This document shows positions 57,711 to 60,942 of a stretch of 60,942 nucleotides of DNA, piece after piece. The position numbers were made by a program, and so were the translations under genes. Positions within the stretch are counted from its first letter, which is position 1; every line of letters begins with the position of its first letter. This DNA comes from Promethearchaeota archaeon (lineage in GTDB: Archaea; Asgardarchaeota; Lokiarchaeia; Sigyniarchaeales; SOKP01), in assembly GCA_048938895.1 (NCBI GenBank), contig JBHLLU010000023.1, positions 2,147 to 63,088 of the forward strand. The letters run 5' to 3'. The notes beneath the pieces were generated by a model. The model was not told the DNA's origin, did not search any database, and saw only the letters and a program-made list of their open reading frames with translations.

Positions 57711-58889
57711 TTAAATTCTTTTCTTCCCTAAGAAAGGCATTGCATGTTCATAATTTTTCATAACAAATCTAGAAATGACGATTCTCTGAATCTCACTTGT
57801 TCCCTCATAAATTTGATAAAGTTTTGCATCTCTAAATAATTTTTCAACAGGTTGAGTTCTTAGATAACCATAACCTCCGAAAATTTGAATAGCTTCAGTG
57901 GTAACGTTCATAGCTACATCTGATGCAAACGCTTTAGCTATCGCAGAACTCAGGTTGTTATCCATGCCTTGATCAGCTTCCCAAGCAGCTTTATAAGTTA
58001 ATAATCGTGCGGCTTCTATATCCTTATACATATTTGCTATTTTTTCTTGAATGACTTGGTAATTTCCAATTGGTCTACCAAAAGCCTCTCTTTTATTGGC
58101 ATAATCAATTGAATACTCCATAGCGGAGCGAGCACATCCAGTGGCAAATGCTCCTATTGCCGGACGTGTATGAGCAAAAGTTTGCATAGCTAAAACAAAT
58201 CCTCTTCCTGGTTTTGCAAGAATGTTTTCCTTGGGGATTCGAACATTTTTTAATCCCACTGATACTGTGTTGGATGCTCTTTGACCTAGTTTTGGAATAT
58301 GCTTACCTAATTTAACTCCCTCGTTTTTAGTATCTACTATAAATGCCGCAATCCCTTTATGCTTTTTTTCAGGGTCTATAGTTGCAAAAACGGTGATGTA
58401 ATCAGCAACACCACCATTAGTAATCCAAAATTTATTACCATTTAGAATAAACTCATCTCCATCTTGCTCCGCCTTACATTTCATTCCAGCTACATCAGAT
58501 CCCATCCCTGGCTCAGAAGTTGCAAAAGCTATTAGTTTAAATTCGTTAATTAATTCAGAGAGAATTCTTTGTTTTTGCTCTTCATTACCACCAATTAAGA
58601 TTGGTTCTGCTCCAAGATTGTTATCAAAAAGGGAAGTGGCAATACCAGGACATGCTGAAGACATTTCTTCAACAACAATGCAAGAATCCAATAATCCATA
58701 TCCTAGTCCACTATACTCTTTGGGTATCATTAAATTCAAAAGCTTCTCTTCCCACGCCTTTTTTATGACGGGCAAGGGAAATTCTTCAGACTCATCGTAT
58801 TTACTAGCAACAGGTAATACTTCATTAATAGCAAATTCTCTTGCCTTTTTTTGTAAAGCCTTTTGTTCCTCAGTTAACACAAAATCCAT
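57711..58889 (-). CDS. Acyl-CoA dehydrogenase
   Basis: SEPGMGSD, GNKFWITNG, QIFGGYGY, IYEGTSEIQR. Confidence 0.95.
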   Translation of the reverse strand: MDFVLTEEQKALQKKAREFAINEVLPVASKYDESEEFPLPVIKKAWEEKLLNLMIPKEYSGLGYGLLDSCIVVEEMSSACPGIATSLFDNNLGAEPILIGGNEEQKQRILSELINEFKLIAFATSEPGMGSDVAGMKCKAEQDGDEFILNGNKFWITNGGVADYITVFATIDPEKKHKGIAAFIVDTKNEGVKLGKHIPKLGQRASNTVSVGLKNVRIPKENILAKPGRGFVLAMQTFAHTRPAIGAFATGCARSAMEYSIDYANKREAFGRPIGNYQVIQEKIANMYKDIEAARLLTYKAAWEADQGMDNNLSSAIAKAFASDVAMNVTTEAIQIFGGYGYLRTQPVEKLFRDAKLYQIYEGTSEIQRIVISRFVMKNYEHAMPFLGKKRI

Positions 58890-58905: not shown

Positions 58906-60155
58906 TTACTCCATTTTTTTAATAAGTTTATCTACGATCTCTTTAAAGTCTAACTCTTCTGGTTTTGGTACATATCGAATTTTGATTAGCTCGTCCATAA
59001 CGTCTATCTTAGTTTCTTTCATTATATCTGCAATTTCTTGAGCTGCTTGACCCGACCATCCGTATGAACCAAATGCTAAACCAATTTTATTCATTGGTTT
59101 CAACCCTCTTTGATATGATAAATATTCTGCTACTGTAGGATATAATCCATTGTTTAACGTTGGACTTCCAACTAATATGGCTTTTGCTTTCATTGCCTCT
59201 GTAATAACATCTGAATAATCTGCGGTAGTTAATTTAAACCTTTTTACAGGAATACCTCGATGATTGATTTGATTTGCTAAAGCTTTAGCAATCTTTTCAG
59301 TACTGCCCCACATAGTATCATACACAATTAGTACTGATTTCTCATCAATTTCTCCTTTACACCATTTAGTATATTTCTCAAGAATTTCTGGGATATGACT
59401 TCGCCAGCATACTCCATGAGAAGGGCATATTATATCAATGGGTAAGGAACCTACTTTTGGTAATGCTTTCGCAATTAACCCAGATAAATGCAATAAAATA
59501 TTAGCATAATATTTTTCGGCTTCTTGCATTATCTCACATAAATCATTCTCATCATCCCACCTTTTTGTGGTTGCTAAATGTTGCCCGAAAGCATCATTGG
59601 AAAATAAAACATTCTTTCCATTCTCATCAGTCATAAATGATACCATTGAATCTGGCCAATGTATCATAGGTATTGGAACAAAAGTAAATGATTTCCCATT
59701 TCCAATATCCAGTGTATCACCCTCTTTTACACCTCTAATTCGATTAAAGATATCATCACTTACCTCTTGGTGATAGTAGGCTTTTAACGTATCTATTCCT
59801 CTTTCTGAGGCAATCAATTGGCATGTATTAGGTAAATGATTAATAATTAATGGAAATGAGCCTGAATGATCAGGTTCAACATGGTTAGTAATGAAATAAT
59901 CAATTTCCTCTAAGGCACATACTTCTTGGATGTTTTTTAAAAAATATTCAAAATATGGTCGTTTAACAGTATCTATTAGTACCGTATTCTCTCCACTCTT
60001 CACGATATACGCATTGTAGCTTGCTCTAATCAACCGAAATGGCTAAAATAACTGAATTTTTTTTCATTTGAGCCCCTATGCGTACTATATCCGTGAAAAT
60101 TGCGAACCTCAAAATCGACATACCCTACAAAGTATACATCTTTCATTAATTCCAT
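58906..60155 (-). CDS. fprA: Flavodiiron protein, spliced: exon 1 60155-60068, exon 2 60020-58906, 400 aa
   Basis: Exon 1 MELMKDVYFVGYVDFEVRNFHGYSTHRGS joins SYNAYIVK...IDTVK; HVEPDHSG, HWPD, SNDAFG, PSHG, flavodoxin TMWGST and GSYGW. Confidence 0.9.
60021..60067 (-). other. 47-nt canonical BHB intron in fprA mRNA
   Basis: ATGAAAAAAAATTCAGTTATTTTAGCCATTTCGGTTGATTAGAGCAA; central helix GCTC/GAGC, bulges AAA and AAG, intron helix TGA/TTA, exon helices GG/CT and TACGCAT/ATGCGTA; contains in-frame TGA. Confidence 0.9.
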
Positions 60156-60307
60156 ATGTGTAATTTCAATTTCACCTTTTTTAAAGGATTTATAAGTTAT
60201 TTTTTAATAAATTAGCTGTCGTTAAAAATTTTGTATCTATCGACTATAAATAAAAACATTCACGCATCTATTTTATTATGATGGACTATCATAAAAAGTA
60301 ATATTTA

Positions 60308-60688
60308 TTAATCAGAAAGAAGAGCAAAGATTAAGATTAAATCATCACCGGCTAAATTAACCCGTTTTTCAATTGAATAGACCCTTTCATTTCCTTTGTA
60401 GAAAAAATAGCTAAAAAACCTGTTATCTATATAAGGGATGCTATCCGCGAAGAGAAAGTAATAGTTATCTCTTAAATCATCGATGTCAATCTCAAAGAAA
60501 TCTATAAACTCTTGTAAATGGGTTTCATTACTATCAAATACAGGGAGGTTTCTTTCGAAAATACGACAATACTTCTCTAGAAGAACGGCTAATTTCTTAA
60601 CTAGAATAGCTCTTTGAATCTGCTCACCACTTTCAAAAAGACTCTTTTTTAAGGCAAACACTATTGATGCTACTAATTCTACAGGCAT
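60308..60688 (-). CDS. Hypothetical protein
   Basis: 126-aa ATG ORF; no recognisable motif. Confidence 0.5.
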   Translation of the reverse strand: MPVELVASIVFALKKSLFESGEQIQRAILVKKLAVLLEKYCRIFERNLPVFDSNETHLQEFIDFFEIDIDDLRDNYYFLFADSIPYIDNRFFSYFFYKGNERVYSIEKRVNLAGDDLILIFALLSD

Positions 60689-60863: not shown

Positions 60864-60942
60864 TTATTCAATTTTTTCGAACATATCTTTTCCTACTCCA
60901 CAAACAGGGCAAGTCCAATCATCTGGTAAATCTTCAAACTTG
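60864..60942 (-). CDS. Rubredoxin (or rubredoxin domain), 5' part outside the window
   Basis: KFEDLPDDWTCPVCGVGKDMFEKIE*. Confidence 0.9.
   Translation of the reverse strand, partial: KFEDLPDDWTCPVCGVGKDMFEKIE

Follow-up and report, generated by a model that had tools for sequence, protein, structure and literature searches.

The window analyzed here, the whole stretch of 60,942 nucleotides taken from contig JBHLLU010000023.1 of a Promethearchaeota metagenome-assembled genome (MAG; GCA_048938895.1; 98.7% complete, 7.5% estimated contamination, 31% G+C), carries on its minus strand fprA, a gene for a flavodiiron protein whose coding sequence is interrupted by an insert of exactly 47 nt (60067..60021). 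The exon-1 frame begins with the ATG at 60155, reads MELMKD...HGYSTHRGS, and then enters the insert, where it ends at a TGA (60032..60030); the remainder of FprA (SYNAY...) lies in another frame, which is open from 60020 to the stop at 58906-58908. These frames and coordinates bear out an earlier interpretation made from the letters alone (hereafter the sequence-only reading), according to which 47 nt that shift the frame and carry a TGA separate the N-terminus from the rest of the protein. Exon 2 matches the ODP/metallo-beta-lactamase-like and flavodoxin domains of Pfam (PF19583, PF00258) and covers positions 34-382 of the 396 in the NCBIfam flavorubredoxin model NF008887. Measured against flavodiiron or flavorubredoxin-type profiles it lacks ∼30 N-terminal residues, and exon 1 provides 29. 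The longest plain open reading frame at the locus begins at a TTG within the insert, which fits the expectation of the sequence-only reading that gene callers would record such a gene as truncated.

The insert was classified with the motif rule of Marck and Grosjean, coded as a 4-bp central helix, two 3-nt bulges, and flanking helices (h and h') of at least two pairs, and with the rule that cleavage follows the second bulge nucleotide (defined in section 4.8 of bioRxiv 10.64898/2026.10.13.758758). The classifier returns four central pairs with h = 2 and h' = 3, i.e., a strict hBHBh' bulge-helix-bulge (BHB) motif, and among offsets from -4 to +4 does so only at offset 0. This offset lies within four equivalent placements of the 47-nt deletion, all of which give the same product because CAA precedes both junctions. 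The central helix is fully paired (4/4, GCUC/GAGC), the bulges AAA and AAG are 3 nt each, on opposite strands, and each 3' of its central-helix strand, and the two pairs of h are followed by an internal loop and then by 7-8 and 7 further pairs. All the pairs listed in the sequence-only reading, including those of the intron helix and of UACGCAU/AUGCGUA, are present. Joining at the cut sites given by the rule yields 400 codons with 0 stops, and the predicted junction, ...HRGS/SYNAY..., is the same as in all uninterrupted orthologues, in agreement with the RGSSYN motif and the 400-residue protein that had been expected from cleavage by the tRNA-splicing endonuclease EndA. When strict hBHBh' motifs within ±3 nt are counted, chance produces them in 109 of 20000 dinucleotide shuffles and 33 of 20000 mononucleotide shuffles of the insert, at 4 of 1113 other positions in fprA, and in 77 of 19985 random genomic 47-mers set at the site, that is, in 0.17-0.55% of trials across the nulls.

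Complementarity between the exons was assessed without fixing a register, by pairing the final 30 nt of exon 1 with the opening 30 nt of exon 2 and taking the energy of the best duplex, which for fprA is -20.1 kcal/mol. None of 53 intron-less fprA orthologues is as low (mean -6.7, standard deviation 2.6, minimum -14.2), and this value is reached by 0 of 5000 synonymous resamplings in which the protein was kept and the codon usage of the genome was applied (mean -6.4, minimum -16.5). When the measure is slid along the 1143 positions of the spliced coding sequence, its five strongest values fall at 84-88, and position 88 is the junction; 25 of 19974 random coding positions in the same genome reach -20.1 kcal/mol. 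The helices use rare codons (ACG 8%, GCG 9%, GGC 7%, AGC 7%, GTG 13%, ATC 15%, CAC 19%), and the G+C content at third codon positions is 0.52 in the 21 codons flanking the junction versus 0.24 for fprA. This exon pattern is not predicted by a recent random insertion and is predicted by an intron that needs its exons to pair. The exon sequence around the intron appears to be reshaped by synonymous changes that hold the motif; the palindrome either predates intron gain, as a permissive site, or followed it, as an adaptation, and both histories fit an exon-pairing intron.

All 16 orthologous loci from the same genus (78-89% identical) are uninterrupted and read ...HRGSSYNAY... or variants with N, K or T, as are all 53 archaeal loci with a readable junction in a species-level genome collection (Promethearchaeota and other Asgard MAGs), the two sets overlapping. 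Alignment with insert-free orthologues, which the sequence-only reading had named as a check on its proposal, thus reads through the junction in every case, and the relatives, being Promethearchaeota (Asgard) MAGs, agree with the Asgard lineage it had assumed. Searches for a second copy of the 47-mer in the 4.65-Mb genome (blastn-short) and for a relative of the intron in the other 53 of the 54 genomes of the genus (69-nt query) returned only short A/T-rich chance matches, and Rfam gives nothing relevant at 59800-60400, its one match, to manA-II, scoring 22.9 bits where the gathering score is 100. The fprA intron would be a recent, species-level gain. Between the joined gene and the orthologues closest to it, the ratio of nonsynonymous to synonymous substitution rates (dN/dS) is 0.041-0.049, and 176 other orthologue pairs of comparable dN have a median of 0.050. 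In so far as substitutions record it, this shows that purifying selection has acted on the fprA lineage through almost its whole history, and it counts in favor of a gene that is still alive.

Two further interrupted protein genes emerged from a brute-force scan of the genome for strict hBHBh' motifs of 14-200 nt that join open frames. The scan gave 1,087,800 strict motifs, 19,351 of which join two otherwise closed frames, and ranking by exon-exon energy together with reading of the junctions brought out one intron in the gene for the B12-binding subunit of a methylmalonyl-CoA-mutase-type enzyme (contig C105; PF02310, and TIGR00640 from position 14) and another in a gene of the PurM/AIRS superfamily (contig C101; PF00586, PF02769), the latter in frame yet containing two stops. 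Splicing would restore KPGL-D-GHDRG, the cobalamin-binding motif, in the mutase subunit and GFHV-T-RAALRDL in the PurM-like protein. At both sites the unconstrained minimum free energy (MFE) fold is the exact BHB, and a filter that demands this identity retains only these 2 of 1301 in-frame candidates; in decoy frames it leaves 1 of 1331 and, in the second set, 0 of 1387.

Of the 54 genomes of the genus, 38 contributed a total of 39 orthologous places at which the mutase-subunit gene was compared. The intron occupies the same site at seven of them (the present genome, G020, G011, G022, G049, G067, and G045), with a length of 26 nt in six carriers and 28 nt in one, and the gene is uninterrupted at the other 32 places and at 11 loci of other genera. 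The seven intron sequences differ while the fold is kept: 98.1% of 105 cells pair, and 7 of 15 pairs have changed on both sides, comprising all six h' pairs and one central-helix pair. These covariation values are reached in 0 of 500 shuffles, and slid controls pair at 12-54%. The orthologues nearest by identity (97%, 96%, and 95%) lack the intron and one at 94% has it, so that the distribution is patchy, as judged from identity ranks only. The PurM-like intron recurs at the same site in one other genome (G024, locus L145), where it is 29 nt long with h = 11 and h' = 9, and is absent from 28 other loci compared.

Exon-exon energies of the mutase-subunit carriers range from -15.7 to -24.9 kcal/mol (n = 7) versus a mean of -10.8 in non-carriers (n = 43), 4 of which reach -15.7; the PurM-like carriers have -19.1 and -18.7 versus a mean of -9.4 (n = 28), none of which reaches -18.7; as kin are not independent, these comparisons are descriptive values rather than clean tests. 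The carriers of both sister introns show the same exon-complementarity hallmark as fprA. Taken together, conservation, covariation, and purifying selection constitute comparative proof that the sister introns are functional, and it is nearly certain that the genus has BHB introns in protein genes at all.

A fourth, relaxed case was found by a motif-free scan guided by paralogues, in which split high-scoring segment pairs (HSPs) gave 45 junction clusters and only one true interruption, a frame-breaking insert between ...GHHA and MIHGP... of a gamma-carbonic-anhydrase-like gene (contig C123). Three species (G004, G002, and the present genome) have the insert at one common site, and the gene runs without a break in 19 orthologues that are more distant. 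Among the carriers dS is ∼1.0 and dN/dS is 0.065-0.080 over 179 codons, and the insert differs at only 4-10 of 31 positions. These rates indicate that the gene is clearly alive under strong purifying selection, which would mean that its insert must be handled at the RNA level. The hairpin contains one compensatory change and the exons pair over 17 positions. The motif is non-canonical, since the best 4-bp register (UGCA/UGCA) gives a 29-nt excision that is out of frame; a register with three of four pairs gives the exact 31-nt excision, a 28-nt excision leaving one additional Lys is a further candidate, and the BHB is best described as relaxed or ambiguous.

The broader proposal of the sequence-only reading, that this Asgard lineage splices ordinary metabolic mRNAs with its tRNA-splicing machinery, draws support from the two sister introns, from the conservation of the mutase-subunit intron with compensatory changes in seven species, and from the dN/dS of ∼0.07 in the carbonic-anhydrase-like gene, all of which point to splicing by comparison. 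Coordinates of the introns and of the parts of the fprA motif are collected in the table.

Table. Predicted exons, introns, and motif elements. Positions refer to the window unless preceded by a contig label.
Feature	Position	Strand	Remarks
fprA exon 1	60068..60155	-	29 codons + 1 nt (A of split Ser codon), MELMKD...HRGS
47-nt intron of fprA	60021..60067	-	frame shift; TGA 60032..60030; TAG closing the exon-2 frame
fprA exon 2	58906..60020	-	GC of split Ser codon, 370 codons, stop
Central helix H, 5' strand GCUC (exon 1)	60070..60073	-	pairs with 60023..60026
Central helix H, 3' strand GAGC (intron)	60023..60026	-	4-bp partner of GCUC
5' bulge AAA	60067..60069	-	predicted cut between 60068 and 60067
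3' bulge AAG	60020..60022	-	predicted cut between 60021 and 60020
Intron helix h', 5' strand UGA	60064..60066	-	with UUA 60027..60029 (U-A, G-U, A-U)
Outer helices, exon-1 side	60074..60097	-	GG 60075..60074, UACGCAU 60084..60078, UUCACGG 60097..60091
Outer helices, exon-2 side	59999..60019	-	CU 60019..60018, AUGCGUA 60014..60008, UCGUGAA 60005..59999
Mutase-subunit intron (L098)	C105:5840..5815	-	26 nt, h = 5, h' = 5
PurM-like intron (L099)	C101:4435..4464	+	30 nt, h = 11, h' = 6
Gamma-carbonic-anhydrase-like gene insert (L103, L194-L196)	C123:71042-71072	+	31 nt, frame-breaking

On the same strand, an open reading frame of 126 aa that has no Pfam match (window 60308-60688) and the C-terminus of a rubredoxin-like open reading frame (…CPVCGVGKDMFEKIE; window 60865-60942) lie upstream of fprA, and an acyl-CoA dehydrogenase gene (window 57711-58889) begins 17 nt past the fprA stop.

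The enzymes that such splicing would require are encoded in the genome, which contains two paralogues of the tRNA_int_endo (EndA) family (PF01974, 101.5 and 68.1 bits, open frames of 209 and 202 aa, in the regions C83:69740-69964 and C123:60606-60854) and one RtcB (PF01139, 566.5 bits). In PMC5829648, Asgard EndA is described as an (alpha-beta)2 enzyme with an L1 loop conferring a broad substrate range. The program aragorn calls only 17 uninterrupted tRNA genes in this 98.7% complete genome, and with its intron option 34, among which are several whose introns are implausible (771 and 2807 nt); the majority of the tRNA genes of the organism are probably interrupted at non-canonical sites. The small number of calls agrees with a description of some Asgard families as heavily loaded with tRNA introns (bioRxiv 10.64898/2026.10.13.758758). 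Strong BHB folds, equal to or near the free MFE and making no coding-frame join, also occur at C161:4612-4685 (-), C163:54157-54184 (-), C68:8275-8320 (-), and C51:39989-40075 (+); they probably mark introns in genes for tRNAs or other non-coding RNAs that aragorn fails to call.

Considered together, the motif, the exon pairing, and the sister introns suggest that the fprA insert is very probably a functional BHB mRNA intron of the flavodiiron gene. The pre-mRNA would fold so that ∼17 exon-exon base pairs bring both junctions together and the last nucleotides of exon 1 pair with the 3' end of the intron, forming the 4-bp helix between the two 3-nt bulges. After cleavage by EndA, RtcB would ligate the exons and would probably circularize the excised 47-mer, and the mature mRNA would encode a normal FprA of 400 residues; cleavage, ligation, and translation of the spliced product are steps that we infer from the motif, the enzymes, and the joined frame. 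These cells most likely splice ordinary mRNAs with their tRNA-splicing enzymes. For the Lokiarchaeial genus as a whole it appears likely that gene expression normally includes an evolving component in which EndA and RtcB splice protein-coding mRNAs. On this view, ordinary metabolic genes gain and lose introns of 26-47 nt, and these introns endure for a long time under purifying selection and draw on synonymous sites of their hosts for the splice structure.

Several observations weigh against an intron in fprA, and most of them are what would be expected of a young pseudogene, in which a recent 47-bp insertion inactivated fprA and the resemblance to a BHB is coincidental. The insert is unique to this genome and, being confined to one species, offers no covariation of its own, and the 3-nt direct repeat CAA at either end would also be explained by target duplication during an insertion into the DNA. 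Energetically the motif is marginal: left unconstrained, the region adopts a slipped GGCU/AGCU register at its MFE, and the fold in which the BHB is enforced is 5.9 kcal/mol worse (-19.8 vs -25.7; in a second folding, -25.1 vs -31.0). It is also the weakest of the three canonical motifs, with a 2-bp h before a 2x3 loop and three weak h' pairs, its h and h' of 2 and 3 comparing with 5 and 5 in the mutase subunit and 11 and 6 in the PurM-like gene. Of the textbook BHB that the sequence-only reading had described, the strict hBHBh' at offset 0 therefore stands and its preference as a fold does not. That the BHB be the favored local fold is no formal requirement of the intron family; it is so at the two sister sites and not at fprA. 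The runs searched included no RNA sequencing run that holds the locus, and dS is saturated (>1.5 to the nearest relative), so that a low dN/dS is blind to very recent inactivation and a very young pseudogene would look intact. Lastly, the brute-force scan found no excess of in-frame BHB joins over decoy frames (19,351 vs 18,940 and 19,472), even at exon-exon energies of -20 or below (7 vs 2 and 9), in a 31% G+C genome where it is without statistical power and helix length alone is useless; therefore, protein-gene introns are few in this genome. Nevertheless, a pseudogene would need three coincidences, namely a strict hBHBh' at the frame-restoring offset (0.17-0.55%), insertion into the middle of the strongest palindrome that fprA contains (5 of 1143 positions in the gene, 25 of 19974 in the genome), and construction of that palindrome from rare synonymous codons whose combination occurs in 0 of 53 orthologues and 0 of 5000 resamplings. 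Moreover, conserved introns in two other genes are flanked by exons with this same signature, and the insert matches nothing else in the genome or genus, leaving no mobile element in view. An inactivated gene is accordingly regarded as unlikely.

The remaining alternatives leave the insert in the message or remove it from the DNA. If the insert were translated, a -1 ribosomal frameshift near CAU UUC GGU UGA would add ∼16 residues inside the conserved RGSSYN region; the frames allow this, as that of exon 1 is open to the TGA, that of exon 2 is open from just past a TAG, and the two overlap by ∼4 codons with a U-rich stretch. However, the canonical X XXY YYZ heptamer is absent, extra residues occur there in 0 of 53 orthologues, and the BHB and the exon-exon helices would be left unexplained, which makes frameshifting very improbable. 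Translational bypassing, in which the ribosome hops over the 47 nt, has a precedent in phage T4 gene 60, where a 50-nt gap of similar size is crossed, and strong local RNA structure is present at fprA; yet the take-off and landing codons differ (UCA vs GCA at the equivalent place), the stop does not directly follow the take-off codon, and to our knowledge bypassing is without example in archaea, so that it is scarcely credible here. An assembly or binning artefact, with the 47 nt absent from the DNA of the organism, might be suspected of a window that comes from a MAG with 7.5% estimated contamination, and the sequence-only reading had itself named such an error as fatal to its proposal. Separately built contigs nevertheless span the insert, one of 2740 nt in run X1 (0 differences over 1001 bases) and one of 1314 nt in run X2, another sample of the same study (1 difference over 819 bases, no gap), and contigs of relatives in runs X1 and X5 are short by exactly 47 nt at the site (114-67 and 65-18), as expected of other species. 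Runs X1 and X2 belong to one study and X1 may be the source sample, a further point on the negative side; the contigs exclude an assembler artefact and give no independent populations. Absence of the insert from the organism is in this light extremely improbable.

Other candidates raised by the scans were rejected as introns. Nearly all of the split-HSP clusters come from domains inserted in frame or from neighboring genes whose paralogues are fused (HdrA/MvhD-like and others). In homology scans such a fusion looks like a split gene: at C71, C115, C33, and C73 the HdrA-like and MvhD-like genes lie next to each other as separate genes, and in the paralogues at C88 and C152 they are fused. In the HdrA-like gene at C33:121351 (∼121351-121408, +), an in-frame TGA stands where paralogues have Cys (…DCGI(TGA)VLAP…), and it is probably a selenocysteine codon rather than part of an intron. 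Candidates at C44, C71, C140, and C49 are adjacent genes with their own start codons, and the in-frame 'introns' without stops at C125:77567, C102:35857, C140:57299, and C11:12380 are ordinary coding sequence.

The closest known system is the intron of the cbf5 pre-mRNA in Desulfurococcales and Sulfolobales, which (Watanabe et al. 2002; Yokobori et al. 2009, PMC2738675) is likewise short, lies in coding sequence, and has a BHB at the exon-intron boundaries; its hosts likewise have a heteromeric EndA of broad specificity, and its distribution among related species is likewise patchy, with gain and loss. Unlike cbf5, a single gene for an RNA-modification enzyme in Crenarchaeota, the genes described here belong to Asgard archaea (Promethearchaeota), encode metabolic enzymes, and number at least three to four per genome; moreover, cbf5 splicing was shown by experiment, whereas here it is predicted. 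The cbf5 gene (TruB_N) of the present genome is uninterrupted, with a single 342-aa frame at C5:24284-24625 (-). According to a 2020 paper (PMC7714728), cbf5 was then the only BHB intron reported in archaeal mRNA besides that in the 5' untranslated region of HVO_1309, and the 2009 paper (PMC2738675) mentions introns in other archaeal protein genes as predicted and unconfirmed. The HVO_1309 intron of Haloferax volcanii is likewise an EndA substrate in mRNA, there confirmed in vivo and in vitro; as described in the same study (PMC7714728), it lies in an untranslated leader and breaks no reading frame, in contrast to the fprA intron, which interrupts coding sequence.

The tRNA introns of Asgard archaea (bioRxiv 10.64898/2026.10.13.758758) share with fprA the motif definition, the presumed enzymes, repeated lineage-specific gains, and sites at which the exon can supply half of the motif. 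They differ in that an mRNA host requires the exon half to be written in synonymous codons and the splice to keep the frame; in the text of that preprint the word mRNA is absent and 'protein-coding' is used only for neighboring genes. A full-text literature search, with subscription journals and supplements outside its scope, returned no report of BHB introns in protein genes of Asgard archaea. A single Asgard genome would now show the mechanism known from cbf5 in three to four metabolic genes that are unrelated to one another, providing a concrete system for how protein-gene introns arise and how host exons adapt. If this is true, gene calls on MAGs of these lineages systematically truncate or split such genes or label them pseudogenes, and the exon-complementarity signature could serve as a detector that is independent of the motif.

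In eukaryotes, HAC1 and XBP1 mRNAs undergo a non-spliceosomal, stress-regulated splicing by Ire1 and RtcB. This splicing resembles that proposed for fprA in that the processing of an mRNA is done by protein enzymes: a short intron, one that shifts the frame, is released by cuts at stem-loops, and a tRNA ligase joins the ends. It differs in its endonuclease, which is Ire1 rather than the tRNA endonuclease, and, of the two, stress regulation is known only for HAC1/XBP1. The present findings bear on ideas about the origins of introns and mRNA splicing near the eukaryotic stem, and, if the interpretation is correct, interrupted protein genes and enzymatic mRNA splicing of the HAC1/XBP1 type would already exist in Asgard archaea, to which eukaryotes are more closely related than to any other known group. 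Among known systems, the fprA intron joins an established and extremely rare kind, and what is notable is the lineage, the number and ordinariness of the host genes, and an adaptation at the level of the exon that can be read from synonymous sites.

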